Below are positions 7,845-41,691 of a DNA stretch of 64,000 nt, one piece after another. Both the position numbers and the translations under genes were made by a program. Origin of the DNA: Candidatus Zixiibacteriota bacterium (GTDB lineage Bacteria > Zixibacteria > MSB-5A5 > GN15 > JAAZOE01); assembly GCA_043819555.1 (NCBI GenBank), contig JBDREQ010000039.1, positions 1,453-65,452 of the forward strand. The letters run 5' to 3'. The number at the start of each line of letters is the position of its first letter. The first letter of the stretch is position 1. Under the pieces are notes generated by a model. The model was not told where the DNA came from and made no database searches. It saw nothing but the letters and a program-made list of their open reading frames with translations.

Positions 7845-10079
7845 TTACTCGGTCGGTTTATCCTCATCTGGTATTGATTCGGATTCTGACTTAATATCTG
7901 CAGCTTCTTCTGCAGTTTTTTCCGAAAGTGTATCCTGAACTTCCGCCTCGGGTTCGGGAGCCGACTTCTCTTCAGGAGTTGAATCGGCCACTTCAGTCGA
8001 AACTTCTTCCACAGGAATAGCATCGGGAATCGGTTCAGTCATGTCGACCATTGTTTCTTTTTCAGATGCAGTTTCTTCGGTTTTTTCCGGTTCAGAAATG
8101 GGTTCAGCAGCCGGCGTTACAATTTCGCTAAGTGAATCACCAAGACTGACGCTCGTGGTTGTGGTTTCCGAGATAAACTTCTCATATTCATCGCGGTCGC
8201 GCTTCTCGAAATACTCCCTGATAGACAGGACTATTTTTCTCGCTCCCCGATCAAACTCTATGACCTTGATCGGAATATGCAAACCCTCAGTGAAATTCTC
8301 GGCCGTTTTATCATCGCCGTCTTTGGCCAGTTGATTGCTCGGCACAAATCCCTCGACCTCGCCATCCAGCTCAACGACCAATCCTCGATCCATGGATCGC
8401 ATGATTGTTCCCAGAACTTCATTTCCAATAGCGTATTTCTTCGCGTATTCCGGCCAGGGATCTTCCAGCAATTGCTTAATTCCAAGAGAAACTCTCCGAT
8501 TATCGGTATCAATCTTGAGAATGCGAACTTCAATGATATCGCCTTTTTTCATTATTTCAGAAGGATGCTGAATGCGTTTTGTCCAGGACATATCAGAAAT
8601 ATGGACCAGTCCATCAACACCTTCCTCTATTTCGACAAAAGCGCCAAAAGCGGTCAGATTGCGCACTCGACCTTTGACTACGTCACCGATCGGGTATTTC
8701 TCATGAATAGTCAACCAGGGATCGGGCTCCATCTGTTTTATACCCAGTGATATTTTCTCATTTTCCTTATCAACCGATAAAACAACCGCCTCGACGGAAT
8801 CGCCCATACTCATTATTTTGGACGGGTGTTTGATATGCTGAGTCCAGGACATCTCTGAGATATGAATCAATCCCTCAATGCCCTTTTCCAGTTCGACAAA
8901 CGCGCCGTAATCGGTAATGGAAACGACTTTACCTTTGACTCGCTTATTGATTGGGAACTTCTCATCTATATTTTCCCAGGGATAGGGAGTCAGTTGTTTC
9001 AAACCGAGAGATATTCGCGAAGTTCTATCGTCAAAATCAAGGATCTTGACGTTTAAGGAATCGCCCAACTGCACCATTTCGGAAGGATGTCTCATCCGGC
9101 CCCAGGACATATCGGTGATATGTAAAAGACCGTCAACTCCCCCAAGGTCAATAAAGACCCCGAAGTCGGTAATATTTTTTACGATTCCTTCGCGAACTTG
9201 TCCCAGTTCAATCTCTTCCAAAAGCTCATTGCGCAGTTGATCACGTTCATCTTCGAGAACAACCCGGCGAGAAACGACAATATTCCGACGGCTTTTATTT
9301 AGCTTAATGATTTTAACGCTCATGGTCGCGCCGATAAGAGCGTCAAAATCAGGCACCTGTCTCAAGGCAACCTGTGAACCCGGTAAAAAGGCATCAACAC
9401 CCATGACATCGACCACGACACCGCCTTTGATACGACGCTTAATCTTTCCGGGAACTAAATCGCCCGCGTCATGTGCGACGCGGATGCGATCCCAGACGCG
9501 CATGAAATCGGCCTTTTGCTTTGAAAGAACGAGTTGACCTTTACTATCTTCAACAGCTTCCAGATAAACTTCAATTTCGTCGCCAACTTTAATATTTACC
9601 TCACCGATGAATTCGTTTACAGGAATTATGCCTTCGGATTTAAATCCAACATCAACGATGATATCATCGCGGGTAACTCCAATTACCGTACCCGGAACAA
9701 TCTCCCCTTCCTTAATATCCCGAAGCGTGCCCTCATACATCGACATAAGTTCATCAAACTCTTCCTGGTTGTATTCTTTGGCATCTAGATCAGTCAGGCG
9801 CATAGAATCAACTACTTCTGGAACATATTCGACGACCGGAGCAACGATACGCTCTTTGGCTTTTTCGGAGATTCTCTTCTTTCGAGAAGTTTCAACTTTT
9901 TCGGCTGTCTGAGTAGTAGCGACTTTCTGTTCAACCGTTTCCGCGACTTTCGTCTTTACTTTCTTTGTCTTGGCGGCCTTGGTTTTCTTAGCGGTGGTTT
10001 TTTTGGTTTTGCTCAGCTTAACCTTATCACCTCCCGTCTGGTAAGTTTTGTTTGTTTTGATTTTTTCGGCTTCAGCCAT
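7845..10079 (-). CDS. rpsA: 30S ribosomal protein S1 with long Lys-rich N-terminal and acidic C-terminal extensions
   Basis: Six S1 repeats (VDVGFKSEG, DFGVFIDLGGVDGLLHITDMSW, GAFVELEKGIEGLIHISEMSW); SD AAGGAGG/GGAG upstream. Confidence 0.97.
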   Translation of the reverse strand: MAEAEKIKTNKTYQTGGDKVKLSKTKKTTAKKTKAAKTKKVKTKVAETVEQKVATTQTAEKVETSRKKRISEKAKERIVAPVVEYVPEVVDSMRLTDLDAKEYNQEEFDELMSMYEGTLRDIKEGEIVPGTVIGVTRDDIIVDVGFKSEGIIPVNEFIGEVNIKVGDEIEVYLEAVEDSKGQLVLSKQKADFMRVWDRIRVAHDAGDLVPGKIKRRIKGGVVVDVMGVDAFLPGSQVALRQVPDFDALIGATMSVKIIKLNKSRRNIVVSRRVVLEDERDQLRNELLEEIELGQVREGIVKNITDFGVFIDLGGVDGLLHITDMSWGRMRHPSEMVQLGDSLNVKILDFDDRTSRISLGLKQLTPYPWENIDEKFPINKRVKGKVVSITDYGAFVELEKGIEGLIHISEMSWTQHIKHPSKIMSMGDSVEAVVLSVDKENEKISLGIKQMEPDPWLTIHEKYPIGDVVKGRVRNLTAFGAFVEIEEGVDGLVHISDMSWTKRIQHPSEIMKKGDIIEVRILKIDTDNRRVSLGIKQLLEDPWPEYAKKYAIGNEVLGTIMRSMDRGLVVELDGEVEGFVPSNQLAKDGDDKTAENFTEGLHIPIKVIEFDRGARKIVLSIREYFEKRDRDEYEKFISETTTTSVSLGDSLSEIVTPAAEPISEPEKTEETASEKETMVDMTEPIPDAIPVEEVSTEVADSTPEEKSAPEPEAEVQDTLSEKTAEEAADIKSESESIPDEDKPTE

Positions 10080-20254: not shown

Positions 20255-20560
20255 TCAGCAGCAACTCTCGTTTGCGGCGTTGGAAGAGCAATCACACGAT
20301 GGTTTGGTACCTTTTAGAATGCCGTTTAATATACCTGCCGCGCATCCAACCCCGCTCCTGACGGAAATTGCCCCGGATTGACAATTCAACGCGCAGGCTC
20401 CGCATTCCATGCATAAATCACGGTACATTAATACCGCCCGCTTGTTTTCAATTCCGAAGACCGCATGAGGACAAACGGTGACACACATTTGACATCCTTC
20501 GCATTTGGATTTATCAAACTCCAGCGTCACAACTTCGGATAAGTATTTTAAAGCCTGCAT
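20255..20560 (-). CDS. hgcB: Mercury methylation ferredoxin HgcB
   Basis: Two CxxCxxCxxxC motifs including CMECGAC, GVGCA, C-terminal CC; directly after hgcA. Confidence 0.95.
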   Translation of the reverse strand: MQALKYLSEVVTLEFDKSKCEGCQMCVTVCPHAVFGIENKRAVLMYRDLCMECGACALNCQSGAISVRSGVGCAAGILNGILKGTKPSCDCSSNAANESCC

Positions 20561-20570
20561 TTTTTAAACC

Positions 20571-21710
20571 TCATAGGAACAATCCAACAATCCATAATAC
20601 GGTTCCCAATATACCAATCGTGATTTGGCACGGCACCGCATATTTCATTTCTTTTAATACCCCGGAAAGCGACGTATAAGTGGACGCCCCCGTAAAATTC
20701 ATTGCGATAAAACTCGAGATGGCGATTATAATAAATATCCAGGCAGCAGACATGAAATATCCCGGGGTAAATTGCGGATAAAAATTGAAAAACAAACTTA
20801 CCGAGGCAATAGTCAATAATCCTATCCAGATGCCCTTCACTGAAAACGAACGTCCCGGCAGTACCGGTAATAAAACAGGAGCCCCGACAATCGCGATTAA
20901 ATAGGCAAAAACGAACAATAGAACGTTTTGTACCCCGTTCGTTGCCAATCTATAGATAGAATATCCGTCGCTTCCCAAACCACTTAAGATAAACATGATC
21001 GCGAGTACTAATAGGAGCTTTTTCAAATAGCCGGCAATTTCCATAGGTATTAGGGTAATCCGCTCGCCAATTTTAAAAGTAACTCGCCGCATTTCAGGGG
21101 TTGCTTTCATGCGATTCTCTAAAAATCGTCTAATATCTGCCGAGAAAACAGGTCCGAAAACAACCCGAAAACCGCTCATCTCTTTAACCCGAAAAGCGCT
21201 GACTCCGGTCGCCCCCAATTGTGGTACGATTATTCTGCGGTGCGAAACAACCTGTTCAAGACCGGAAGTTTTTATCCGGATAACTAACTCATTAGTACCA
21301 AACGTACCTTTTCCCGCCGCGCACCAGACATTGATACCCTTCGTATCTAAAACCAGGCCCCATCCGTCCAAACCGTCAAGGTCAGATCGGAGGTAATCAA
21401 AACTCATTTTGTAATTGGCCGAGACAAATACCGGTGATTTATCCGTCGGCTCTCCAATGGCGTACAATCCCGGAGTGACAATATGCGTTGTCCGGCCTAT
21501 TCCCCAGCGGCGTTTCCAATTTCCGATTTTGTCAGACAAGGTTAAGACCGTGCTAACCTTTGGAATTTTCCCAATTGGCGTGGAAATATGTTTATCAATC
21601 CATGGTTTATTATCCGCAATTAACTCAAATGCAGTATCTGGATTTTTTTGGCTTTCAGGCTGGCTGCAACACTGCCCGTTATTTTGTGAAAGCTCACTCA
21701 CGATGCTCAC
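20571..21710 (-). CDS. hgcA: Mercury methylation corrinoid protein HgcA
   Basis: Cap-helix GINVWCAAGKG, ANYKMSFD, PQLGATGV, C-terminal TMs, MNFTGASTYTSLSGV. Confidence 0.97.
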   Translation of the reverse strand: MSIVSELSQNNGQCCSQPESQKNPDTAFELIADNKPWIDKHISTPIGKIPKVSTVLTLSDKIGNWKRRWGIGRTTHIVTPGLYAIGEPTDKSPVFVSANYKMSFDYLRSDLDGLDGWGLVLDTKGINVWCAAGKGTFGTNELVIRIKTSGLEQVVSHRRIIVPQLGATGVSAFRVKEMSGFRVVFGPVFSADIRRFLENRMKATPEMRRVTFKIGERITLIPMEIAGYLKKLLLVLAIMFILSGLGSDGYSIYRLATNGVQNVLLFVFAYLIAIVGAPVLLPVLPGRSFSVKGIWIGLLTIASVSLFFNFYPQFTPGYFMSAAWIFIIIAISSFIAMNFTGASTYTSLSGVLKEMKYAVPCQITIGILGTVLWIVGLFL

Positions 21711-21715
21711 CTCTA

Positions 21716-22411
21716 TTAAAAAATCAACAAATAAAATCCTGCGATTAGCAAAATACAGCCTGCCGTATAGCGGATAATTTTAGCCGCCCGTTCAGATCTA
21801 AAAATAGCGGCTTTGCCATAAGAGAGCCCGGTTAAGACGGCGGCGGCTGGAAAGGAATAGCCTATCGCAAAGAAAGTCAAAATAATTATTCCCCATAGAG
21901 TGTGCCCCCTGAGAACCGCCAGACCAATCGCACCCGCCAGGGCAGGATTGCAGCCGATAGTACAAGCTGACGTTCCTCCCCCTACGACAAGACCAAAAAA
22001 GGCAGCACCCTTGATTGATTCGGGAACCGTCGGCTTATAATTTGTTACTATTCCCGGAATTTTCCAGGGTATTAAATCAAGAGAAACCGCTCCCAAAAAG
22101 ATTATTATCAATCCGGCCAATGTCTTCCAGTATATCCCCAGAGCACTCCCGGCTATTTGACTGATAAATCCTGCCGCCGCTCCAAGCAATCCCAATGACA
22201 GCATTGTCCCGATCATAAAAAACAATCCCGTAATGGCAATCGTTTTCTTGTCTATCTTTTCCTGTGATCCGCTGTATCCGGCGATAGCCCCCAAAACTGG
22301 TAATGTGCAGCATGAGCTGACCGAAGCCGCCAAACCCAGAACCAGGGAAGCCGGCAATATAATCCAGCCGTATTCGGGATTATCCAATATTTGCCGTAAT
22401 GTGTCAATCAT
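21716..22411 (-). CDS. CcdA/DsbD-family transmembrane thiol-disulfide electron transporter
   Basis: About 6 TMs; SCCTLP in TM1 and CTIGCNP in TM4. Confidence 0.75.
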   Translation of the reverse strand: MIDTLRQILDNPEYGWIILPASLVLGLAASVSSCCTLPVLGAIAGYSGSQEKIDKKTIAITGLFFMIGTMLSLGLLGAAAGFISQIAGSALGIYWKTLAGLIIIFLGAVSLDLIPWKIPGIVTNYKPTVPESIKGAAFFGLVVGGGTSACTIGCNPALAGAIGLAVLRGHTLWGIIILTFFAIGYSFPAAAVLTGLSYGKAAIFRSERAAKIIRYTAGCILLIAGFYLLIF

Positions 22412-22420
22412 ATTGAGTTC

Positions 22421-23032
22421 CTATGTACCGCAATTATTCGGATCACAGGTTGCCGGATCGCATCCACCCGATAAATATGCTTTCATGAGAATTGTTTCGG
22501 ATAGCTCACCAGTCAATATCGCCGGAGCCTTACCCTTTTTGGCTACGACTACCGCCGGTAGATTCGGAATATTAAGATTGTCAACCGCGGAAGAAAACAA
22601 TTCTTCGCCGGGCGCGGTTTTGGCGATTATAATATCTGCTCCGGATTTCCGAATCGATTCGGTAACATCCTCGACCATCCGTGATATTTCGGGATTTTTT
22701 TCCAAAGCCGAGCCTGCTCCTTCAAGAATAAGAAATAAAAAATCCGAATCGACCAGTAAATCATCGGTGAAAAATGAAGTTGTTTCAACCTGGCCAGGGT
22801 CAACACTCGCATTGGCGATTTCCCTTTCCTGATATCCAAGTGAGTAAATGGCTAATGCGATCGCCGTTAGCATGATAATCGAAAATATGATATTTTTTGC
22901 CTTTCGCCCCATTAATGATTGCCTGCCGCTATCAGTTGTACAACAACCAGTCGGTCCGCAATCGCAGGAATCAGCATTCAAATTATTCAATCGCTTGTTA
23001 TTATCGTTGCTCTCGAGATTATTGTCACCCAT
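22421..23032 (-). CDS. Cys-rich membrane-anchored hypothetical protein, possibly thioredoxin-like
   Basis: N-terminal CDCGPTGCC, one TM, C-terminal GGCDPATCDPNNCGT. Confidence 0.65.
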   Translation of the reverse strand: MGDNNLESNDNNKRLNNLNADSCDCGPTGCCTTDSGRQSLMGRKAKNIIFSIIMLTAIALAIYSLGYQEREIANASVDPGQVETTSFFTDDLLVDSDFLFLILEGAGSALEKNPEISRMVEDVTESIRKSGADIIIAKTAPGEELFSSAVDNLNIPNLPAVVVAKKGKAPAILTGELSETILMKAYLSGGCDPATCDPNNCGT

Positions 23033-23054
23033 TGCAATTACCTTTCCTATTCAA

Positions 23055-23414
23055 TTATCCTGAAAGATCAAAAACGTCATTCAGCTTCCCGCTGCAACAG
23101 CTTTTAAAAAACTGAGCCAGCTCAGTTATTACCTCTTCAGAAATCCAACACCTGGTTTTTTGCCCCACTTTTTCAAGTTGAATTAGCCCGGATTGATTGA
23201 GTTCTTTTATATGATGTGAAATTGTAGAAGGCGCAAGGTTCAGCTGGCTACCCAGGCGGCCGATACAATTCTGATCATCATCGCCCAATTCGCATTTTTC
23301 ATCAATGCTGCAACAGGAAACCAAAGTCAGAAACAACTGAAACCGGTTTGAATTCGATAGTGCCTTAAAAATCCTAACATATCCCTTATTATCTATAATT
23401 CGATTGTTCGACAT
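23055..23414 (-). CDS. arsR: ArsR/SmtB-family metalloregulator
   Basis: FKALSNSNR, LNLAPSTISHHIKEL...GLI; multiple Cys including two CC pairs. Confidence 0.9.
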   Translation of the reverse strand: MSNNRIIDNKGYVRIFKALSNSNRFQLFLTLVSCCSIDEKCELGDDDQNCIGRLGSQLNLAPSTISHHIKELNQSGLIQLEKVGQKTRCWISEEVITELAQFFKSCCSGKLNDVFDLSG

Positions 23415-23521: not shown

Positions 23522-25846
23522 ATGGCATCATCAGGTCAGCATCCAAAACTGCGTTCGGATCTTGTCGTATCCGAACAGGAAACTGGCGGGCAAACGCTAT
23601 TCATACTGAAAGACCCGATTACTTTTCGATATTTTCGGGTACGCGCGCCTGAGTTTTATCTAATCAACCAGTTTGACGGGAAAACTGATAATGCGAGTAT
23701 CTCAAAACGGATGTTGGACAAGTTTGATTTACAAATCTCAACCGAAGCTATCGAACAATTCGCCAATAAGGTCGAGGCTCTTTATTTTTTCGAAGGTTCT
23801 CGGTCGGAATATGAAATATCATCGGGGCGATATAAACCTCAGGCAAAAAAGAGCCTTTTTTCAAATTTACTATTTGTAAAACTCAAGGCGTTTAATCCTG
23901 AAGGGATATTAAACGCCATATACCCTGCCGTAAAATTTCTATTTAATCCTGTCGCGGTTACGGCCATGATTCTACTAACTTTTTCCGGATTCTTAATTTA
24001 CTCTGCCAATTTTTATGAATTTCGCTTTAATCCCACAGCCATTTTTTCTTTGGGATCGCTCGTGACCATTTTCATTGTTCTGGCATTTATACTACTGCTC
24101 CACGAATTTGCGCACGCCTTAACCTGTCGGCATTACGGCGGACACGTGAGGGAAATGGGCTTTCTGCTTTTATATTTTCAGGTTTGTTTTTACGCAAACC
24201 TATCCGATTCGTGGCTTTTCAAGAAAAAATCGCATCGTCTGGCGGTTCTTTGGGCAGGACTGTTTTTTCAAATGGTTATGTTTTCCGCTGTTGTTTTTGG
24301 ATGGCGTGTTACCGTTATCGGGACCGGAATAAATCATTTTTTCTGGCTGGCGGCTAATATCAATCTTCTGGTAATCCTGATCAATTTTAATCCTTTGATT
24401 AAGCTTGACGGTTATTATCTCTTATCCGAAATTATCAATATCCCCAACCTGCGTGACCGGTCATTTCAATACTTAAGACAAGGATTCAAGAAATTCATCG
24501 GAATCGATTTATCATATAGAAATCCACCAAAACGCCAGGCGCGGATAATGCTTTTTTATGTCATTTTCGCTTCTTTTTACTCTCTACTCTTAATTCTGTA
24601 TGTCGGTCGAGCCGCATATCGGTTCCTGGTCGAAAACCTCGCCGGTAGCGGTTTTTTATTGTTTTTAGTGTTGCTGATTATTATTTTTCAAAAACCGGTC
24701 AGGCAATTTATAAGATTCGTAACTAAAAGAGAGGTCTTGAAGGCGATGGCATTCAAACCAAGAAATATAGTGATATTCACTAGCGTTCTTATTGTAGCGA
24801 TTGTCTTCCTGTTTATAATCCCCTTCCAGAGTCAGGTGGGAGCCGGGATAACCATTCAGCCCAAAGCGGAATTTCGAATTGTTCATCAATCTGCCCAGGG
24901 GCGTCTGGATTTATATCTGAGGGAAAGCGGCACAGAGCGAATATTTGGTACCGAACATATTCAATTATCATCCGGGGATTTAGCCGTATTGAGGCTTGTA
25001 CCTTTGGTCAAAGAAGGCGATATTGTAAAAAAAGGCGATACTTTGGCAACGATAATCTCCAGTCAGGTGTTGGGTAACCTTGATGCCGCTCGCGCTGAGC
25101 TTGACCGTTTGCAAAATGAAATAGCTCTGATACAATCGCCTCCCAAACCTGAAGAAATCACCTCGGCGCAGGCGGCGGTCAATGCGGCTAAAGCTAACGT
25201 TGAGCAAATGCAAAACGATGTCGATAGAAACAGGTCTTTATTTGAGAAAAATCTAATCGCTCGACAGGAAATTGAACAATCTGAATCATACCTGATTGTA
25301 GCCCAGTCGAATTTAAAAGAAGCTCAGGCAAAACTGGAATTAATCAAGGCGCCTCCAAAAAAAGAGGAAATCGACATCCTCAAATCGAAGATATCAACCC
25401 AAAATGCCTCAATACGTTATCTCGCCACTCAGGAGGCCGCCCAGGCAATTGTTACTCCCATTGATGGAGTTATCGTCGCGCAGTATCGCGATGAATTGTT
25501 GTTCAAAGTGGCCGATATGTCTCAAGCGGAAATCACCATGCCAATTGCCGATAACTTCCTCAAAATGATCCGGACCGATGCTGATGTTTCGGTTAAGGTT
25601 CGCAGTTTCCCCTCGCAGCTTTTCAACGGCCAGGTCATACAAATTTCCAATTCGGGAGATTTAGCTTTCTCCACCGACGACAGGTCGCGTTTCCCCGTTT
25701 ACGCTTTACTCGATAACCCCGATGGAGTTCTCCAGGACGGAATGAGCGGGTACGCAAAAATCTCCTGCGGTAAATCGTCTCTCTTCAATATTTTGTCAAA
25801 TCGCATAAAATCCAACCTGCGGGTAGAATTCTGGTCCTGGTGGTAA
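23522..25846 (+). CDS. RRE(PqqD-like) / M50 site-2 protease / HlyD-like adaptor fusion protein
   Basis: N-terminal PKLRSDL..ILKDP...YF...EFYLINQFDGK (RRE-like); HEFAH and NFNPLIKLDGYY (M50 zinc ligands); multiple TMs; VKEGDIVKKGD, coiled coil, TPIDG, GMSG.AKI (membrane fusion protein). Confidence 0.85.
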   Translation: MASSGQHPKLRSDLVVSEQETGGQTLFILKDPITFRYFRVRAPEFYLINQFDGKTDNASISKRMLDKFDLQISTEAIEQFANKVEALYFFEGSRSEYEISSGRYKPQAKKSLFSNLLFVKLKAFNPEGILNAIYPAVKFLFNPVAVTAMILLTFSGFLIYSANFYEFRFNPTAIFSLGSLVTIFIVLAFILLLHEFAHALTCRHYGGHVREMGFLLLYFQVCFYANLSDSWLFKKKSHRLAVLWAGLFFQMVMFSAVVFGWRVTVIGTGINHFFWLAANINLLVILINFNPLIKLDGYYLLSEIINIPNLRDRSFQYLRQGFKKFIGIDLSYRNPPKRQARIMLFYVIFASFYSLLLILYVGRAAYRFLVENLAGSGFLLFLVLLIIIFQKPVRQFIRFVTKREVLKAMAFKPRNIVIFTSVLIVAIVFLFIIPFQSQVGAGITIQPKAEFRIVHQSAQGRLDLYLRESGTERIFGTEHIQLSSGDLAVLRLVPLVKEGDIVKKGDTLATIISSQVLGNLDAARAELDRLQNEIALIQSPPKPEEITSAQAAVNAAKANVEQMQNDVDRNRSLFEKNLIARQEIEQSESYLIVAQSNLKEAQAKLELIKAPPKKEEIDILKSKISTQNASIRYLATQEAAQAIVTPIDGVIVAQYRDELLFKVADMSQAEITMPIADNFLKMIRTDADVSVKVRSFPSQLFNGQVIQISNSGDLAFSTDDRSRFPVYALLDNPDGVLQDGMSGYAKISCGKSSLFNILSNRIKSNLRVEFWSWW

Positions 25847-26115
25847 CTTTTTTTATTCCCCTTAATTAATTGTCTAATAATAAGTTGCGTGATTTTGTGT
25901 GATTCTTCGCATTAAATAATTGTCCCAGGCACTTGACAGAGAAGAAATATAATACTTGATTTGCATGCTGAATAGCAGTTTTCAGCACACAGGGATGTGA
26001 AATTGTTACACGGATTGTAACTTCGGTGCTTCATCCCAAAGACAGATAAGAGGAAACCACTCAGCATTATGCTGATGGCACTATATCGGACTCAAATACA
26101 TAGGAGGTGAACCCG

Positions 26116-26187
26116 ATGATCTACGAACTCGAAATCGAAGTTCTAGAAGAGAAGATTGCTCCTGGAATGAGCATGGGTGGTCAGTAG
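26116..26187 (+). CDS. 23-aa small peptide MIYELEIEVLEEKIAPGMSMGGQ, putative RiPP-like precursor
   Basis: AGGAGGTGA SD at 26102-26110, 5 nt before ATG; LExLEExIAP leader-like motif; downstream hairpins; next to the RRE-M50 gene. Below the ORF-track cutoff. Confidence 0.8.
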   Translation: MIYELEIEVLEEKIAPGMSMGGQ

Positions 26188-26264
26188 AATTGAAACCGCG
26201 AAGGAATTAACCCTCGCGAATTTCAATTCTGTCAAGTCAGGGGCCGCCATTGGCGGCCCCTTTC
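26186..26264 (+). terminator. Two hairpins 3' of the peptide ORF; the second is a likely terminator
   Basis: AGAATTGAAA...TTTCAATTCT (26186-26230) and AGGGGCCGCCA-T-TGGCGGCCCCT-TT (26239-26263), the latter overlapping the kinase stop codon. Confidence 0.6.
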
Positions 26265-29200
26265 CTATTGCCTAATACAACTTTTAAAGACTTTAACCGT
26301 CCCAAAAGCTTAATAATTCTCTTATCGGTATAGTATTTCTGTAGTTTTTCAGAATCAACTATTTTTTCTGATATTTTTTTAAGTACTTCAAGTGCATTTT
26401 GGGAATGAACAAACGAATCTTCGAATTCTTTAAGTTCAAATGTAATTTCGGATAATAAGCACGATGCCTGCCATTGTTCGGGAAGCATTCCGTTTTTTTG
26501 CGCAATCTTTAAAGCCTTGTTCAAAGACAACTTAGCGATGTCGAGTTTTCTTTCGCTGAATTCACACATGGCCAGATCTATATGGTATCTCGGCAAATCA
26601 ATATCTTCATCAATCGTGCCAAAATATAGTCTGGCATTATTCATAAATTTCTCAATATTTTTAAATTCATGGTTTTCAATTTCTTTTTCCAGCCGAGCCA
26701 AACCAATCACTGAAAACTCGCGTTGTGTATTCAATTTGGATTGTAGCTCTTCCGCCGCCCGGATATGTTTTTGATCTCCTGAAATATTAAAGTTATGAAT
26801 GTGTATGAAAAATTGGGCCAGTTTATCATCAATATCGACCGCCATTTCTTTGGCTTTCCTTAAATAATCTTCGGCCCTGTCAAAAACGTTTAAATCTTTA
26901 TATAATTTTGCAAGTTCCAAATAACAGGGCAAAATTGAAGCGCTGTGTTCCAGTTGCAATGCGGAAGATAAGGCATTTCGGATTTGAAATTCCGCTTCTG
27001 AGTAGACACCCATACGGCGAAGTATTTGCCCGGTCAGGCGTGACAGGGTAACTTTATGCGCTTCATCGTTCAAAATATCCGCGATCGCTTTTCCTTCCTG
27101 CAGGAATTTTAGGGCTCCACTTAACCTGCCAGCTAAGAGGCTTGCTTCCACAAGGTTTTCGTAATTAAGGAGTTGTTCTACTTTGATACCCATTTCTAAA
27201 TTAAGGTTAAGCGATTTCTCAAAAGCGCCAATGGCTGCAGATGCCTTCCCCATCATAAAATAGGTGAAACCCAGATTATTCCAGGTGCGGGCAATTTCCC
27301 CTTTATCACCCAGTTTTTTTTTGATTTCCAGGGCTTCGGAAAGATGTTTTACTCCATTCTCATATTCTCCACGCACAACATAAATGGAACCGATATTGTT
27401 CAGGCTTGATGCGATTTCACGTTGAGATTTTAGTTGTCTTTGCAATTCCAGGGCTTGAATATAATGTTCAAGGGCTTTATCCATTTTTCCGGCAACCCAG
27501 TACATATTGCCGAGATTATTGAGAGTCTGTGAAAGCCCCAATGGATCATCCAAACGCTCATACAATATCCTGGCTTGATTTAAAACCCGTATCCCCGAAG
27601 AGTAATCCGATTTGTCCTTATATAGGTCACCCAAAATTTTATAAGATTGGGCCGCAAGCAAATCATTTTCACCATTTTGGGAAAGTTCCACGACCCTGAC
27701 AAAAGAATGTTCGGCGAATTCAAGATACCCGGCCTCTTTTTCAACATTGGCTCGCCGAAACATCAATCTGGCCTGCTGGGAAATATCTTTCAGGCTTTTT
27801 GCAGCCTTTAGAGCCAGTTCAAGATACTCAAGCGATTTTTTCTGACTGACCGGAGTCTTATCAATGGCTGTGAGTAAAGATTCGATAGCCTTTTTGTAAT
27901 CTCCGGCCTGATAAAGTAAGTTTCCTCTTAATACCGCGAATGAATCAGAATTATCAAATATTTTTTCGATTTTCTTTGAAATAGTCCTGCGCGTTGATAA
28001 TTTCAACCTTCGGTTCAGGGAAGTGAGCAAAATCCGACGGCGTGAATCTGGAATATCAAACCACCACCTGAGGGCTGTTTTGGAATCAGAACAGATTATC
28101 TGAGCTATATCTTCGACTTTTTCCTCTACATCAGCCACTGCCAGGGCAAGGGCCAATTTGTTAAGCGAAAGCGAAGAGTTGTGCAATGGCCGCAATGCGA
28201 ATCGGGTCAATCGTTCAGGCCATTCAATACAATCAATTGATTGGTTTTGCCATCCCCAGTGGCCGTCCAGACGAGCAAACCGGCAATTATCAAAATTGTG
28301 TTCCAGAATTATTCTGACCCCAGCCGGATCAAAAAGCAGATCCTTTTCAATAAAATGCAATTGTTCAATTGAGAAACTGTGTTTTCCAAAAATCTCATAC
28401 AGCTTATTATCATTAAGCGCATCCAAGCCGTAAATAAGATGTCGAGGCCGAATTGCTTTCCTGAAGGGATATATGGAGCCCGCTTTGGCCAATTTTTCCA
28501 GTAATTCAAAAGCCGATGATGGCCTTTTTTCCGGATTTATTTCCAATAATGAGGATATTAAATCTTTTGTATTTTGCGAGAATTCACGAGCCAGCCCGGT
28601 TAGTCCTGGCCTTTCCCCTTCGGTTATCTGAGCGTTAATCTCAAGCGGATCGTTTTTTTCAGATTGAAATGGCAATGAACCCGAAGCCAGGTAGTAAGCC
28701 ATAACTCCAAAGGAAAACAAATCCGATCGCGGCGTTATTTTCTGGCCCATAACCACTTCTGGAGCCATGTATCCGACAGTTCCTGAGGTTTTGGGATTGG
28801 TTGCAATCCGGTGATCAGACGCCAGAGAAAAATCAGAAAGCTTTACATAAAATAATCGATTCAGCGCAAAATTAACATCCTCAAAACCCGGGGGACAGAA
28901 TACATTTGAGGGTTTTATATCATTGTGACAATAACCGGCGCTATGCAAAACATAAAGCGATGCCGCCGCCGCCGATAAAATCGCAAGGAGTTTATCTTCG
29001 GACAATTTCCCCGCGTAATTTTCAAGTATTTGCCCTTCACAAAATTCGATAGTAATAAATTTTCGGCTGGTGGAGGCAATTCCAATATCAAAGCACTTGA
29101 CAATACCGGGAAAATGAATTTTCTGAGAAATTAATTTTTCGGTTTCTATAAGCTGATCGTTTATATTTTCGAAAAAGCATTTTATTGCTATTGGTCTGGA

Positions 29201-29305
29201 AATATTTAGATGATGGGCCAAAAACACTTCGGCCGTGCCGCCCTCACCGATTTTTTTTATTACTTTATAATCCTCAGGGAAAGTTCTAATCACCGAACGC
29301 CTCAT
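26237..29305 (-). CDS. Hanks-type Ser/Thr protein kinase with C-terminal TPR array
   Basis: IGEGGTAEV, AIK, HNDIKPSN, DFS, GTVGYMAPE, SDLFSFG; TPRs such as SQTLNNLGNMYW, ASSLNNIGSIY, ARTWNNLGFTY. Confidence 0.9.
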   Translation of the reverse strand: MRRSVIRTFPEDYKVIKKIGEGGTAEVFLAHHLNISRPIAIKCFFENINDQLIETEKLISQKIHFPGIVKCFDIGIASTSRKFITIEFCEGQILENYAGKLSEDKLLAILSAAAASLYVLHSAGYCHNDIKPSNVFCPPGFEDVNFALNRLFYVKLSDFSLASDHRIATNPKTSGTVGYMAPEVVMGQKITPRSDLFSFGVMAYYLASGSLPFQSEKNDPLEINAQITEGERPGLTGLAREFSQNTKDLISSLLEINPEKRPSSAFELLEKLAKAGSIYPFRKAIRPRHLIYGLDALNDNKLYEIFGKHSFSIEQLHFIEKDLLFDPAGVRIILEHNFDNCRFARLDGHWGWQNQSIDCIEWPERLTRFALRPLHNSSLSLNKLALALAVADVEEKVEDIAQIICSDSKTALRWWFDIPDSRRRILLTSLNRRLKLSTRRTISKKIEKIFDNSDSFAVLRGNLLYQAGDYKKAIESLLTAIDKTPVSQKKSLEYLELALKAAKSLKDISQQARLMFRRANVEKEAGYLEFAEHSFVRVVELSQNGENDLLAAQSYKILGDLYKDKSDYSSGIRVLNQARILYERLDDPLGLSQTLNNLGNMYWVAGKMDKALEHYIQALELQRQLKSQREIASSLNNIGSIYVVRGEYENGVKHLSEALEIKKKLGDKGEIARTWNNLGFTYFMMGKASAAIGAFEKSLNLNLEMGIKVEQLLNYENLVEASLLAGRLSGALKFLQEGKAIADILNDEAHKVTLSRLTGQILRRMGVYSEAEFQIRNALSSALQLEHSASILPCYLELAKLYKDLNVFDRAEDYLRKAKEMAVDIDDKLAQFFIHIHNFNISGDQKHIRAAEELQSKLNTQREFSVIGLARLEKEIENHEFKNIEKFMNNARLYFGTIDEDIDLPRYHIDLAMCEFSERKLDIAKLSLNKALKIAQKNGMLPEQWQASCLLSEITFELKEFEDSFVHSQNALEVLKKISEKIVDSEKLQKYYTDKRIIKLLGRLKSLKVVLGNRKGAANGGP

Positions 29306-31089
29306 TAATCATCTGAATCAAGTTGACTGCAGGGTAATGAGATAGTAAATGTCGTGCCTTGTCCTTTCACGGAATCGACCCAAATATCACCGCCATGATT
29401 TTTTATAATTTTCAGACAATTGGCCAGGCCTAATCCATGACCTCCTTGCTTGGTAGTAAAGTTCGGCTCAAATATTTTTTCAATATTGTTTTCCGGAATA
29501 CCCGCGCCGTTATCGGAGACGCAAACCAATAGAGTATTCGAATTGTCGCCCAATTTGCACTGCAATTCAATTGAAGGATTGTCAGCTTCTTCCAAAGCAT
29601 CGGCGGCATTATTTAGGAGATTAAGCAATACTTGCTGGATTTGGCCAACATCGATATTAACCTCAGGCAACTCTCCCCCACACAACATCTTCATTTCAAT
29701 TTGCGCAAATCGCCTCTGAGTTTTTATGGTAAATAAAACATCATCCAATAGATGTTTGATGTCAAACTTGACCATTTCGGTTTCAAGCTTGGAAAAATCC
29801 ATAAGGCCATTTGTAAATCTCTTGATTTTACCGATATTGTCAACGACGCTGCGAATACTCTTGTCAACTTTGTCATACTGCCTCCGGTCAATGTTAATCT
29901 GAATCAGCTCGGCATTATTGGATATGATTGAAAGAAAATTATTCAATTCATGCCCAATGGAAGCAGCCATCTCGCCTTTGGCAACCAGTTTTTCTGACAG
30001 GATTACATATTTCTCAAGTATCACATTTTCGGTAATATCCTCAACAATGAGAATGGCTCCGGTTTTTTGGCCCGGCAGAGAATTGGTCCTTGACATTTTC
30101 AATGACAGTACTTTTTCTTCATATCCGGTATTATGAAAATACCGATCTTCTACAAAATCGCCCACTCCTGATATTACCGGTTCAATCATCTTGCGCCATT
30201 TATCATATTCCTTTTCCGGCACAAGATCGATAAAATTATTCTGACCTCTCTCGTTAGCGCCGTCAATGATTGAACCTTTATTTACCTGGAATATCTTAAA
30301 ACTAACATCGTTTATGGTGATAAGATTATAATCCGAATCAATCACTATGATTCCGACGGGGGATTGATCAATTATATCCTCATTGTATTGCTTCATGCGA
30401 CTCAGATGGCCGTAGAGCTGGGCGTTATGAATAGCAATTGCCGCCTGCTGTGAAAACAATTCAAATAAATATAAATCGGATTTCAAAAACAGCTTGGCCT
30501 GAGACGAGTTATCAAGATAGACAACTCCAATTACCTTGTTTTTAAGCTTAAGCGGAACGCACATGATTGAGCGGAGATGTAATTCGACAATCGATTTTTG
30601 ACTGGAATATCTTTCATCCTCCAGCGCGTCCGAAGTATAAATCGCATTTCCCGATTGTACGACTTTATTGGCTATTGAAAACGAAATCTTAAAAGTATCG
30701 TCCTGCGTTTCTTCATGGCGAATATTATGAGCGGTTTTGTACTGCAGCGTCCCATCTCTATCGAGCAACATAATAAAACCGCGTTCAGCCGAAAGTAATT
30801 CCACGGCCTTTTCCATAACGACCTGGAGAACATCTTCCAGGATTAAGGCTGAATTGATTCCGACTGAGATTTCCAAAATGGCTTTGAGATCATCGAGCCG
30901 AATCTTGTGAGTGTCAGCTTCTTCTGATATGCGAGGATTATTGCTGACTATATCATTCAGTGTCTTTTCCATTTCAGCCAGTACATTGTCGACCTGAAAT
31001 CGGTCTGTTGTTGAGCCCACATCGTCCCCCGATGATTTCGTATTCTCCACCCCCGTTTTATTCATATCTTTTTTCATAAAATTGGACAT
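29305..31089 (-). CDS. Cytoplasmic GAF-PAS sensor histidine kinase
   Basis: GAF (AERGFIML, SIMCVPL), PAS, H-box GHELNN, N-box LLNNAADA, DNGAGI, GHGLGL; TAATG overlap with the kinase gene. Confidence 0.92.
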   Translation of the reverse strand: MSNFMKKDMNKTGVENTKSSGDDVGSTTDRFQVDNVLAEMEKTLNDIVSNNPRISEEADTHKIRLDDLKAILEISVGINSALILEDVLQVVMEKAVELLSAERGFIMLLDRDGTLQYKTAHNIRHEETQDDTFKISFSIANKVVQSGNAIYTSDALEDERYSSQKSIVELHLRSIMCVPLKLKNKVIGVVYLDNSSQAKLFLKSDLYLFELFSQQAAIAIHNAQLYGHLSRMKQYNEDIIDQSPVGIIVIDSDYNLITINDVSFKIFQVNKGSIIDGANERGQNNFIDLVPEKEYDKWRKMIEPVISGVGDFVEDRYFHNTGYEEKVLSLKMSRTNSLPGQKTGAILIVEDITENVILEKYVILSEKLVAKGEMAASIGHELNNFLSIISNNAELIQINIDRRQYDKVDKSIRSVVDNIGKIKRFTNGLMDFSKLETEMVKFDIKHLLDDVLFTIKTQRRFAQIEMKMLCGGELPEVNIDVGQIQQVLLNLLNNAADALEEADNPSIELQCKLGDNSNTLLVCVSDNGAGIPENNIEKIFEPNFTTKQGGHGLGLANCLKIIKNHGGDIWVDSVKGQGTTFTISLPCSQLDSDD

Positions 31090-31848: not shown

Positions 31849-33660
31849 TTAATCAAGGAAAGTTGAAATATCGCCAACCGCTACGAATCGAGCGTAAAAA
31901 ATTGGGTAATGGTTATCCTGATCCAGACGCTTTGATATAAATATCTTTAAATTGCTGTCAATATCAACGCCGACACTTATAGAGCTATACCATTTGTCAC
32001 TGGAATTCAACCGATTCTCTGATATTTTGCCCCCGTCGTACCTGATAAATGGACTTAAGTCGGATTTTGGAATACTAAAGAGGTATTCAATTCCGGCATA
32101 AACAAATTCATTCCCTCGAAATTCTTTATGTCGATACCCGTGCATGGTTCCCAAACCGCCTATAAAGAATTGACGGTTGAGCGGTATGCATTCACCTGAT
32201 AAATAACCGTAAGCGCCGGTTAGATTCAAATACTGATAGCGATTGAACCGGTTATAACGATCAAGTCGAACCTCAAATCGTTTAAAATCAAAGTCTCCGT
32301 TATACTCCTCCGGAGAGTATTCATATCGGGCATACCCGAGCCAGCCCCGGCGGGGATTCTTTTCATCATCTCGATTATCAATTGTATATGTCAGCATCAG
32401 ACTGCTTACCGTTTTATCCTCAAAGTCAGCTTTCAGATTTTGTAATTCACCGTGAGGTACCATATTATAATTGCCTCGAAATTCCTTATTTCCGAATACT
32501 GACCATAAAAACGGATGGGCATCAAGCCAGCGCTGTTTTTCCGACAAATATCCGATTTCAAACCGATTCCACCCCCACGGACTAAACCGAACATAACCAT
32601 AACCGCCCTCAGCCTCATAAAAATCTTTCCAGTCCTCATTGAAAAACAACGCAAATATTGTATTCTCATTATCTGAAATGATCAGATCATCGCTCGATTT
32701 TAGTAACCGATATGCGCGGCCGCCCAGCTCCAGAGGCATTTTGCCTCGTATCACCGTTTGAGACACCGACAGGCTGTATCTCCATCGTTTGGAGGCGAAG
32801 GCATATCCACCCTTAAGATCGAATGACGGCAAAAGCGAATCGGCGTGGCGGTATTTTATACCCGAGAATAATGACAGGCCGTCAACACGATTATAAGAAG
32901 CATCGCCACTCAGCCTGATATCGCTGTCGTAACTTTTCCAGCGCCGCGCCCTGGATCTTCTCGTGGTTCGTTGCCCTTTTTTCGATTTTATTTCACCATA
33001 AATTGATGATTTTTTATCGAGACGAACCCGGCCCATAACAGATATTACGTCACCCCTGACAACCGCCTTACTGCCAATGGTAATATCTCCCATTAAAGCG
33101 ATGACGTCTTTGTTTACTTCGCCATCGACTGTGATATCGCCGCGAAAAGCGATAACCGATCCCCGCAAAAAACCGTACTCTTCAACATTGAGTAAATTCT
33201 TAAAGGATAGTTTATCCCGTGTACGTCTCCGAAATGATGACTCCCGTTTTTCTGCATCATGGCCGGTAAATTCAAGAATATATTCGCCTTCAGCTTCTCC
33301 TGAAGTATAATTTATCATTTTTACATCTTCGAATAAGAGAGAAAACTCGGGAGACTCGATTCCTGTCCTATCAATAGTAAAATCGGGGCCGCAGGAAATC
33401 GTTCCGTTCTGATAAGTGAAATCACTGATATTGAAAACGTAATTACGCAATTCTCCATTGGCAAAAACAACAAATTCCCAGGTATCGGAATCCGCGATCA
33501 ATTTGGCCAACTGGTTTTGTGAAGTATCCGGGGCGTAGGTTTTATAATCGTCCGCGAATACCTGCGGCGTGGCGCAGATTGCTATCGCCATTATCATCAG
33601 ACTTACTTTAATCCATCTAAACATATCGATCTCCTCCATATTTATTATGGAGACATACAA
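31849..33660 (-). CDS. Omp85/BamA-TamA-family outer-membrane protein with bactofilin-like beta-helix segment
   Basis: Signal peptide; YNRVDGL; FFIGGLGTMHGY..KEFRGN lid-loop motif; GDITVDGEV/GDVI repeats. Confidence 0.75.
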   Translation of the reverse strand: MYVSIINMEEIDMFRWIKVSLMIMAIAICATPQVFADDYKTYAPDTSQNQLAKLIADSDTWEFVVFANGELRNYVFNISDFTYQNGTISCGPDFTIDRTGIESPEFSLLFEDVKMINYTSGEAEGEYILEFTGHDAEKRESSFRRRTRDKLSFKNLLNVEEYGFLRGSVIAFRGDITVDGEVNKDVIALMGDITIGSKAVVRGDVISVMGRVRLDKKSSIYGEIKSKKGQRTTRRSRARRWKSYDSDIRLSGDASYNRVDGLSLFSGIKYRHADSLLPSFDLKGGYAFASKRWRYSLSVSQTVIRGKMPLELGGRAYRLLKSSDDLIISDNENTIFALFFNEDWKDFYEAEGGYGYVRFSPWGWNRFEIGYLSEKQRWLDAHPFLWSVFGNKEFRGNYNMVPHGELQNLKADFEDKTVSSLMLTYTIDNRDDEKNPRRGWLGYARYEYSPEEYNGDFDFKRFEVRLDRYNRFNRYQYLNLTGAYGYLSGECIPLNRQFFIGGLGTMHGYRHKEFRGNEFVYAGIEYLFSIPKSDLSPFIRYDGGKISENRLNSSDKWYSSISVGVDIDSNLKIFISKRLDQDNHYPIFYARFVAVGDISTFLD

Positions 33661-40494: not shown

Positions 40495-41691
40495 TTAAGT
40501 TGCATCCCCGGATGCGGGATCCGAAACGGATGGCGGGGGTGGCGGCGGAACTGGCGGCGGAACCGTTTCATCAATTGGTGGAGGAGGAGTAACTTCCGGC
40601 TGTTCGGAAATATCCAGCTTTTTTGGTTTCATTCCAAATCGTGAACTGATGACAGCCCCCATACCAATTGATACGACTATAAAGCCAAAAACTCCATGAC
40701 CAATATATGTTAAAATCGCGAGGACATCTAAATCGACAATTTCAAACATCATCGCGAGATATCGCCCCAATTCCAGAAAAATCACACCCAGTGCACCTGT
40801 TAAATACATTGATTCGCTCTTAACCCGAAGGATGCGGCGGATTAATCCTCCGATATAGATGGCGCCACCGACATAACCCAGCAGAATTAAAACTGGAAAC
40901 AAGATTACAACTACCGGCAAAAGAGGTATTCCAATAACCGTAATGGTCAGTATTAAAATGAGAGGGATAAATGAAATCCATATCAATAGTCCCCAGAAAA
41001 ACGAAGATAAAATTGCCGATTTAATCTTTCTGACAATGCGCCGCAAATTATTGGGCATTAGGGCCAAAAATATCATACATATAAAAAGCCAAAAAGCGGT
41101 AATAATATACTTTACATAATCCAGCAGAAAATCCGATAGTCCAATAATTCGAGGCGACAAATTCTTAAATATCGGTATTTCCTCTCGAGCTCCCCCGATT
41201 TTTCCGCCGCGACGCCGTACAATTTCTCCCGCTATTACGTCTCCCCGTATCTCTCCGCTGCTTTCAACCACTACCCTTTTAAGACTGATTACGTCATTAG
41301 TAACCAGACCCTTAACAACGACGTCATTGAATCCAAAAACAGTTCCCTCGATTCTTTCGTTAATATCTATAAAAACATCATCGAATAGTTCCACTAAATC
41401 GCCATCGTAAATTTCGGTGCAACGAATCTCTGGCGGTAATAAGATTTCGTCATCTATGGCTTCTTCACCATACTCGGATTCAGGTCGGGAGTATTTTTGA
41501 TATTTGACAAATTTCTCCTCGTCGGTATCATAATACCAGGTCTGGCCGGTCGAATCGATGGCAATCGTTTTTTCGTTGGAATGAGTAATTCGTATAAACT
41601 TCTGTCCCGTATCCTCCTGTGCGGAGGCTATTCCGACAGAAAATAAAAAAAATAAAGCAAATGCTAATTTAAAACGTAACCTGGTAATCAT
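40495..41691 (-). CDS. Membrane protein with bactofilin-like (polymer-forming) domain and Pro-rich tail
   Basis: Signal peptide, V.G.V/GEIRGDV repeats, about 5 TMs (ITVIGIPL), poly-Pro C-terminus. Confidence 0.7.
   Translation of the reverse strand: MITRLRFKLAFALFFLFSVGIASAQEDTGQKFIRITHSNEKTIAIDSTGQTWYYDTDEEKFVKYQKYSRPESEYGEEAIDDEILLPPEIRCTEIYDGDLVELFDDVFIDINERIEGTVFGFNDVVVKGLVTNDVISLKRVVVESSGEIRGDVIAGEIVRRRGGKIGGAREEIPIFKNLSPRIIGLSDFLLDYVKYIITAFWLFICMIFLALMPNNLRRIVRKIKSAILSSFFWGLLIWISFIPLILILTITVIGIPLLPVVVILFPVLILLGYVGGAIYIGGLIRRILRVKSESMYLTGALGVIFLELGRYLAMMFEIVDLDVLAILTYIGHGVFGFIVVSIGMGAVISSRFGMKPKKLDISEQPEVTPPPPIDETVPPPVPPPPPPSVSDPASGDAT

Follow-up and report, generated by a model that had tools for sequence, protein, structure and literature searches.

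Organization of the locus

Within a 64,000-nucleotide stretch of contig JBDREQ010000039.1 from Candidatus Zixiibacteriota bacterium (assembly GCA_043819555.1), which we call the window, a gene fusing a RiPP (a peptide made on ribosomes and modified after translation) recognition element (RRE), an M50 protease and a periplasmic adaptor stands beside a gene for a 23-residue peptide, on which the gene of a Ser/Thr kinase with a TPR array converges. Fusion, peptide and kinase are kept or lost together in most of the Zixibacteria genomes searched, and likely constitute an undescribed peptide-signaling circuit.

The fusion gene (RRE-M50-membrane fusion protein; 23522..25846, forward strand) encodes 774 amino acids, and its stop is separated by 269 nucleotides from the peptide open reading frame (ORF). 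The latter, at 26116..26187 on the same strand, comprises a leader (26116-26163) and a predicted core (26164-26184), and is preceded by the Shine-Dalgarno sequence AGGAGGTG (26102..26109, forward). Further upstream lies TTGACA (25933..25938, forward), the -35 box of a candidate promoter that in the window has a poor -10 box; across 28 loci, C-T-T-G-A of the -35 box is kept in 90% or more. Such a conserved box upstream, and a hairpin and U-run downstream, accompany most homologous peptide genes, and the peptide gene likely has its own promoter; no sigma-54 promoter was found upstream of it in 54 loci. RNA runs were too thin to inform, one of three yielding three short contigs at a depth of 2-3, none over the peptide.

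On the reverse strand, the kinase-TPR gene (26237..29305; 1022 amino acids) follows a histidine kinase (HK) gene of GAF-PAS-HisKA-HATPase order (29305..31089; 594 amino acids). The gap between the converging genes holds two GC-rich hairpins (26196-26219 and 26239-26261, assigned to neither strand), which are likely terminators. A preliminary description had placed these four genes, and we reproduced all of its coordinates; the translational coupling it noted between HK and kinase-TPR is likewise evident, the stop of the upstream HK gene sharing one base with the kinase-TPR start (TAATG). Its statement that no tailoring enzyme, ABC ATPase or TolC adjoins the locus also finds support, as no conserved neighboring energizer (ABC, RND or MFS) or outer-membrane factor (OMF) was found in 42 loci. 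Below, the letters G, L, f and g label the genomes, loci, families, and genera or clades of our comparison set.

A fusion of RRE, protease and adaptor

The 774-residue protein had been described as joining a PqqD-like domain, an M50 protease and an HlyD-type adaptor, an arrangement that its AlphaFold model (99-row alignment, pLDDT 83) confirms by fold. The RRE spans residues ~6-92, seven predicted transmembrane helices residues 144-434, and the periplasmic adaptor residues ~434-753; from the seven hydrophobic segments, the RRE is predicted to lie inside and the adaptor outside. In the model, the N-terminus forms three strands and three helices and resembles lasso-peptide RREs (6jx3, Z 10.3, root-mean-square deviation 2.7, 83 residues aligned; 5v1u, Z 9.8), as expected were it an RRE fold; the Z values for the small domains of the model are moderate, and the sequence evidence agrees. 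The PqqD label itself fits in part: Pfam PqqD is silent on the N-terminus in the window, but matches weakly in 25 of 34 homologous N-termini.

The membrane part matches SpoIVFB (8vjl; Z 10.6) and RseP (Z 10.1), and contains HEFAH (residues 194-198) and NPLIKLDG (residues 290-297, with N290, P291 and D296); H194, E195, H198 and D296 are present in all 99 alignment rows. With HExxH and NPxxxxDG in a transmembrane context and the SpoIVFB/RseP fold, it has the marks of an M50, or site-2, protease. The adaptor matches EmrA at Z 14.7 (EmrA/MacA at about Z 14), as the membrane fusion protein of a type I or tripartite exporter should, and its predicted tip keeps R569 (94/99), L/M573 (99/99) and S/A/T580 (92/99), which we take to be a TolC-docking motif. 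Seven OMF/TolC proteins are coded elsewhere in the genome.

Among family models, the top NCBIfam match of the fusion is NF041824, the daptide intramembrane metalloprotease, over residues 12-400 at 192 bits (cut-off 300), and HlyD/RND adaptor models rank after it in the NCBIfam/Pfam scan. The EpeP-type model NF058609 matches weakly and only at residues 152-310, without RRE or adaptor. Close homologs, named Zixibacteria by their sources, are usually annotated merely as an efflux adaptor or a putative peptide zinc metalloprotease. A profile search of the 3.35-Mb genome gave one such RRE and no second, and no PF05402 match.

The precursor peptide

The precursor of the window, MIYELEIEVLEEKIAPGMSMGGQ, consists of the leader MIYELEIEVLEEKIAP and the predicted core GMSMGGQ, and is the sole strong match to the peptide profile in the genome (48.6 bits; next 9.0). 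The leader is acidic and by its sequence has no hydrophobic signal stretch. In relatives, 28 of 30 loci have the ORF no more than 1.5 kb from the fusion, the two misses having it beside the kinase, and its invariant residues are encoded by varied synonymous codons across 47 loci, so that selection acts on the protein. The small ORF thus accompanies homologous fusions and is under selection, in keeping with its earlier reading as a precursor gene.

Among 51 distinct precursors, there is no variation at L5, L10, E11, A15 and P16, and hardly any at S19, G21 and G22. The leader follows L-x-[IV]-E-x-L-E-x-[KR]-[IV]-A-P, and 48 of the precursors contain the motif [S/N/D]-x-G-G-[Q/E/L], with Ser at its head in 46 of these 48 cores; the usual core reads x-G-h-S-x-G-G-Q. 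A conserved leader with a variable core had been named as what would lend support. The former is borne out, the leader being conserved and daptide-like, but the core is conserved across the phylum. Similarly, GMSMGGQ stands as the predicted core in the window, but the heptapeptide is not the rule: measured to the end of the motif, 40 of 48 cores have 8 residues, and while 31 stop there, 17 extend past it.

A Ser lactone ring of the autoinducing peptide (AIP) type was considered and set aside: 31 of 48 cores have no tail for transpeptidation, Ser is not invariant, and no AgrB-like gene lies nearby. The likeness of the core to the release-factor GGQ and ABC LSGGQ motifs we take as coincidence. 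Separately, two loci, L086 (about 7880-7970) and L087 (genomes G052 and G030), carry after the precursor a second Shine-Dalgarno-led ORF of 29 residues, with the same GISQGGQ core as the precursor and an unrelated hydrophobic N-terminus.

Co-loss and rearrangement in Zixibacteria

A full-length fusion is present in 56 of 61 order-level genomes. Profile searches of 251 genomes of the phylum found the fusion in 210, the peptide in 204 and the kinase in 185; all three occur in 172 genomes, none in 34, fusion and peptide only in 28, and other combinations in 17, with fusion and peptide discordant in 14. Related genomes are not independent, so we rely on loci rather than on Fisher tests; scanning the genome collection with a single protein gave one locus only. 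The kinase threshold proved too strict for distant families, and we rejected the absence of the kinase from the 28 fusion-and-peptide genomes as largely a threshold effect: it lies beside the peptide in the f7, f9, f14 and f19 loci checked. Clade g97 and genome G193 were likewise miscounted as lacking a kinase that is present.

An HK locus was recovered from 24 of the 34 genomes scored as having none of the three genes. At 15 loci in 8 genera, the deletion is clean and a CLC gene directly abuts the HK gene; these include family f4 (g26 and g69), whose carriers have the fusion at a separate locus. Elsewhere, G110 retains the kinase domain alone and G095 has no kinase at its HK locus; the HK locus of G240 is non-orthologous, and that of G174 ends at a contig break. 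In four g97 genomes the kinase is kept while peptide and fusion are gone. HK and a neighboring Omp85 gene outlast the loss of fusion, peptide and kinase, and HK, surviving without the other three, is only loosely tied to them. After kinase loss, HK is found without GAF in g56, G047, G125 and G132.

In family f4 (18 of 21 genomes fetched, of which G058 looks scrambled), a distance of about 19-24 kb or a contig boundary now separates the fusion from the other genes, while the peptide has stayed convergent with the kinase in all 17 loci where the latter is intact. In genus g56, the kinase is lost and the fusion kept, with 4-7 tandem precursors bearing a different core, S-[RK]-[YWF]-G; for example, L188 (11659-13340, in G151) and L189 (10238-11260, in G186) hold 5-7 tandem precursors and an HK gene without GAF. 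As a point of taxonomy, L035 (CAZJWR010000001.1) is titled 'Ignavibacteriales bacterium' and carries a Zixibacteria-type locus of family f1, so that title and taxonomy seem at odds.

The kinase-TPR protein as predicted receptor

The kinase-TPR protein consists of a kinase (residues ~10-280), a STAND-type linker without its NTPase, and a TPR superhelix (residues ~455-1015); like HK, it is cytoplasmic, with neither transmembrane segment nor signal. A model of the G006 ortholog (pLDDT 90) matches PknB (Z 30), the peptide-binding TPR superhelices of LGN/Pins (Z 26.6) and an APC subunit. An AAA_16 domain is retained between kinase and TPR in 2 of 9 distant orthologs scanned (f11 and f16), which identifies the window-type protein as a STAND-type kinase that has lost its NTPase. 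The preliminary description had likened the TPR array to those of RRNPP receptors, though the protein as a whole is built like a STAND-type kinase; no RRNPP receptors were among the fold matches listed for the whole models. Every full-length row compared has the kinase catalytic residues.

The conserved polar residues of the predicted TPR groove are K523, K556, D560, N596, N597, N600, N637, E670, R673, N676, N677, E710, N714 and N717. Where the core is of the usual kind, eighteen polar TPR positions are near-invariant, and nearly all of them fall on the first of the two helices of a repeat. In G033, whose core ends in W-S-I-D, the first seven groove positions match those of other f3 members at 15%, whereas six other f3 proteins match at 85-98%; further paired shifts of core and groove occur in G012, G003, G062, G160 and f9/f14. 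Clade g97, which has neither peptide nor fusion, is nested within f14 in a kinase tree made by a quick method. Against peptide-bearing f14, its groove identity is 28% and its kinase identity 43%, while peptide-bearing f14 and the more distant f9 share 66% of the groove and 34% of the kinase. Because the groove positions were taken from peptide-bearing orthologs, we also compared whole helices: first and second TPR helices are 59 and 42% identical in peptide-bearing f14, and 51 and 60% in the g97 comparison of three sequences from one clade. Complex prediction of the G006 TPR region (residues 455-1015) with its 33-residue precursor scored 0.01.

The tie between peptide and kinase-TPR had at first been speculative. 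Co-loss, co-migration and groove co-variation now support the linkage, so that a role of the TPR groove as peptide receptor, predicted as it is from sequence comparison, has become the best-supported inference. A parallel observation concerns G160 (L204 and L205), which has a second RRE-M50 protein of 421 residues without adaptor and a second precursor. This second set and a precursor of G173 (L194) adjoin sigma-54 activators of ~780-800 residues, that of G173 with TPR, which suggests other TPR receptor types for such peptides.

Relatives beyond Zixibacteria

The RRE-M50 part of the fusion has 10,577 representatives (50% identity clusters) at E values up to 0.001. We surveyed the best 80 of 591 metagenome loci, many on short contigs, and found ORFs with the same leader in 50, of which the profile picked up 49 and a pattern 1. 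Most have long cores rich in Asn, Gly, Pro and Ser, and many stand in tandem. A Zixibacteria-type kinase occurs in 6 of these best 80 loci, all with short cores. The commonness of leader and fusion outside Zixibacteria points to a general module, of which the kinase link is the Zixibacteria form. Six metagenome loci (L228, L229, L231, L243, L267 and L276) hold 3-5 same-leader precursors beside the fusion, with Asn/Gly/Pro-rich cores of 30-40 residues that recur across loci.

On proteobacterial plasmids (2 of 4 regions opened), a fusion homolog, 25-28% identical in its RRE-M50 part, has as neighbors giant LEPR-XLL proteins, DUF3467 and extra adaptors, with TolC or a SecA-like helicase adjacent (TolC in one of the two). 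Conceivably, though on balance we think it unlikely, the RRE-M50-adaptor is the core of an unrecognized ABC-independent, leader-directed export system of diderms that carries cargoes as small as 7-residue peptides and as large as giant LEPR-XLL proteins, and that Zixibacteria adapted as a phylum-wide peptide communication read by an NLR-like (STAND) Ser/Thr kinase.

A model of the proposed circuit and its alternatives

Taken together, sequence and structural models lead us to infer the following mechanism. The RRE of the fusion would bind the consensus leader, and the M50 site would cut after A-P, with P at -1, as predicted by daptide numbering because L(-7) and A-P(-2,-1) are spaced as in daptides. 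The core would leave through the adaptor and a TolC-type channel coded elsewhere, extended precursors being trimmed at the C-terminus, and might re-enter by a general peptide transporter (an OPT gene is present, Opp absent). In the cytoplasm, the TPR groove of the neighboring kinase would read the core, which would activate the kinase and prompt a relay to its likely downstream partner, the coupled GAF-PAS HK. We regard the ligand-receptor core of this model as probable. That the core is exported and sensed again, as a cell-to-cell or envelope-crossing signal, is the form we favor, at somewhat short of an even chance.

Several observations weigh against such a signal. Pheromone cores are typically strain-specific, unlike this one, which is conserved phylum-wide. 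The shortage of Opp (PF08352), absent from 39 of 41 genomes including G000 and present in 2, tells against a classic pheromone; the sole SBP_bac_5 match lies outside any opp operon, and POT/PTR2 occurs in 12 of 41 genomes and is absent from G000. OPT transporters are widespread (40 of 41 genomes, absent from G034, and 77 of 80), but we rejected OPT as a dedicated importer, since 27 of the 30 genomes counted as system-less have it; kept in loss genomes, it is not system-specific. Nor is an ATPase or other energizer linked to the locus. The choice of groove positions from peptide-bearing orthologs is partly circular, the groove decay in g97 comes from a single clade, and in G243 (93% complete, 620 contigs) kinase and groove are intact although neither peptide nor fusion turned up, while G193 has peptide and kinase with no RRE-M50 match. 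HK retains GAF in 5 of 8 clean-deletion genera, the losses are numbers of loci rather than of independent events on a species tree, and separation of the fusion in f4 is probably one event. In G029, G079 and G080, the peptide lies with the fusion and the kinase elsewhere, contrary to co-migration of peptide and kinase. For the minimal pheromone or quorum-sensing circuit first proposed, kinase-TPR linkage speaks in favor, while conserved cores, C-terminal extensions and the rarity of Opp do not; the quorum-sensing label is unproven.

The closest rival shares the ligand-receptor core and supposes that the peptide never acts outside: the fusion would cut or remove a constitutively made precursor, the kinase-TPR would read the cytoplasmic level of core or precursor, and the circuit would report whether the M50-adaptor-TolC assembly works. 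A receptor and HK without transmembrane segment or signal, missing Opp, a phylum-wide core and the predicted strong promoter of the peptide gene all suit such a monitor, co-loss and groove data fit it equally, and the single substrate in the genome leaves the fusion without other leader-bearing cargo. An exporter without other cargo is nonetheless an odd thing to watch; the adaptor tip is conserved, OPT offers a re-entry route, and fusion homologs elsewhere have neighbors with the look of exported products, either peptides whose cores are long and hydrophilic or giant proteins. We consider the monitor possible, if less likely than a signal that leaves and returns.

The kinase could instead be a tailoring enzyme, the TPR holding the precursor while its core Ser is phosphorylated, before cleavage and export of a phospho-peptide RiPP. 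The near-constant Ser, the invariant catalytic residues and the occurrence of TPR proteins among RiPP systems (NF041717 and NF040586 match weakly) are what such an enzyme would predict. However, some f9/f14 cores have A or I in place of Ser next to kinases with an intact catalytic site, g97 keeps an intact kinase without a peptide, g56 cores keep Ser without a kinase, and decay of GAF in the coupled HK after kinase loss points to signaling; we judge this explanation improbable. Still more doubtful is that fusion and peptide yield a secreted product, perhaps modified by unlinked enzymes, with kinase and HK as old neighbors: same-leader peptides and fusions do occur without the kinase outside Zixibacteria-like loci (kinase in 6 of 80), as does peptide with fusion in G029, G079 and G080, but deletions take kinase and peptide and spare HK, Omp85 and CLC, the groove decays and co-varies, and no other PqqD/RRE gene was found in the genome.

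Relation to known systems

A search of open PubMed Central and bioRxiv texts found no description of the fusion with its peptide or receptor, although RRE-family lists in daptide supplements may hold this family. In the daptide pathway, the precursor MpaA is served by MpaP, an intramembrane site-2 protease that has an RRE joined to its N-terminus, and the leader, ELExMEAP, has its P at -1 and its L at -7 (10.1101/2023.03.08.531785). Shared here are the RRE-M50 order and an acidic leader with L(-7), E(-6) and a terminal A-P; positions -8 and -4 differ. Beyond this the systems part: the fusion scores below the NF041824 cut-off and has a C-terminal adaptor, the core is polar and of 7-8 residues, a kinase-TPR is coupled, and conserved neighbors in 42 loci include no DapB/C/D/M (DapB being DUF-RRE) or ABC transporter. 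Daptide precursor models matched none of the 51 peptides, and 0 of 34 precursors end in Thr, the invariant C-terminal residue that daptides convert to Dmp; the window peptide ends in Gln. Dmp is given as the class-defining modification (PMC12749797). As to RiPP status, no tailoring gene is linked, and kinase phosphorylation may occur.

Set against the five-point signature of RRNPP systems (PMC10075063), the locus is alike in its small propeptide gene adjoining a cytoplasmic TPR protein, its short linear core and its Asn-rich groove. It differs in having a 1022-residue STAND-type Ser/Thr kinase rather than a receptor of 250-500 residues, a RiPP-type acidic leader and its own protease in place of a Sec/PptAB signal, and a diderm host in which no Opp was found. 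We conclude that this is a co-evolving three-gene system, predicted to work in RRNPP fashion and with daptide-type leader processing, that belongs to neither family.

Other M50 proteases of peptide pathways include TglG, TmoG and EpeP (PMC10885120). EpeP/YydH (LiaK), as far as that source describes it, is an intramembrane M50 enzyme credited with both cutting and exporting a ribosomally made small peptide, as proposed here; unlike the fusion, it serves a modified antimicrobial in Bacillus and has no TPR kinase. The proteobacterial PqqD-M50-HlyD genes are homologous, and the N-terminal motif L-H-V-E-P-I-E-P-R-I-L-L-S-A at their loci resembles the leader by eye, although the leader profile scores it at 1.6 bits, which is not significant. 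There, in contrast, a giant protein would be what is carried, and extra adaptors, TolC or a SecA-like helicase adjoin the fusion. In the portion of 10.64898/2026.03.19.712371 available to us, the export route of giant proteins is not assigned to the fusion; such proteins are also treated in 10.1101/2023.11.21.568195 and PMC10868602.

On the receptor side, the kinase belongs with STAND-type kinase-NTPase-TPR regulators and recalls the trifunctional kinase-AAA-GAF-histidine kinases. The likeness lies in AAA_16 of the f11/f16 orthologs and in a coupled cytoplasmic GAF-HK; the differences are the loss of the NTPase in the window's order, an HK gene that precedes the kinase, and a ligand that appears to be a self-encoded peptide.

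Short-peptide signaling through cytoplasmic TPR receptors has been described for Gram-positive Firmicutes. A phylum of uncultured diderms seems to operate a circuit of this kind with unrelated components—leader recognition of the RiPP type, protease and adaptor in one chain, and a STAND-type kinase whose ligand is predicted at 7-8 residues—and provides natural cognate and non-cognate pairs in the usual core, G033, f9/f14 and the decayed g97. If true, this reading would assign a role to a protein family that is very large and unannotated, and would suggest how giant LEPR-XLL proteins may be exported.

Neighboring genes

An Omp85-type barrel fused to a bactofilin-like segment (31849-33660, reverse) adjoins HK in 28 of 42 loci, and a second bactofilin-domain gene lies at 40495-41691 of the window. 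We rejected the former as an outer-membrane partner of the fusion, since it is kept in 5 of 5 genomes without the fusion. A gene that we take for DUF3467 lies near, and upstream of, the fusion in several f4 genomes (L066-L074); annotated DUF3467 genes lie near the fusion on the two proteobacterial plasmids (L208 and L209), and a homolog of this type in G000 is on a separate contig from the fusion.

On the other side of the locus (20255-23414, reverse), preceded by genes for an ArsR regulator and a DsbD-like protein, is a pair that we name hgcAB-like and presume to concern mercury methylation. One member is a CdhD-like membrane protein (20571-21710, reverse) with NVWCAAGK, presumably the hgcA motif, and the other a 2x[4Fe-4S] ferredoxin with a terminal CC (20255-20560, reverse). 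This pair stands beside the fusion only in several f1 genomes.

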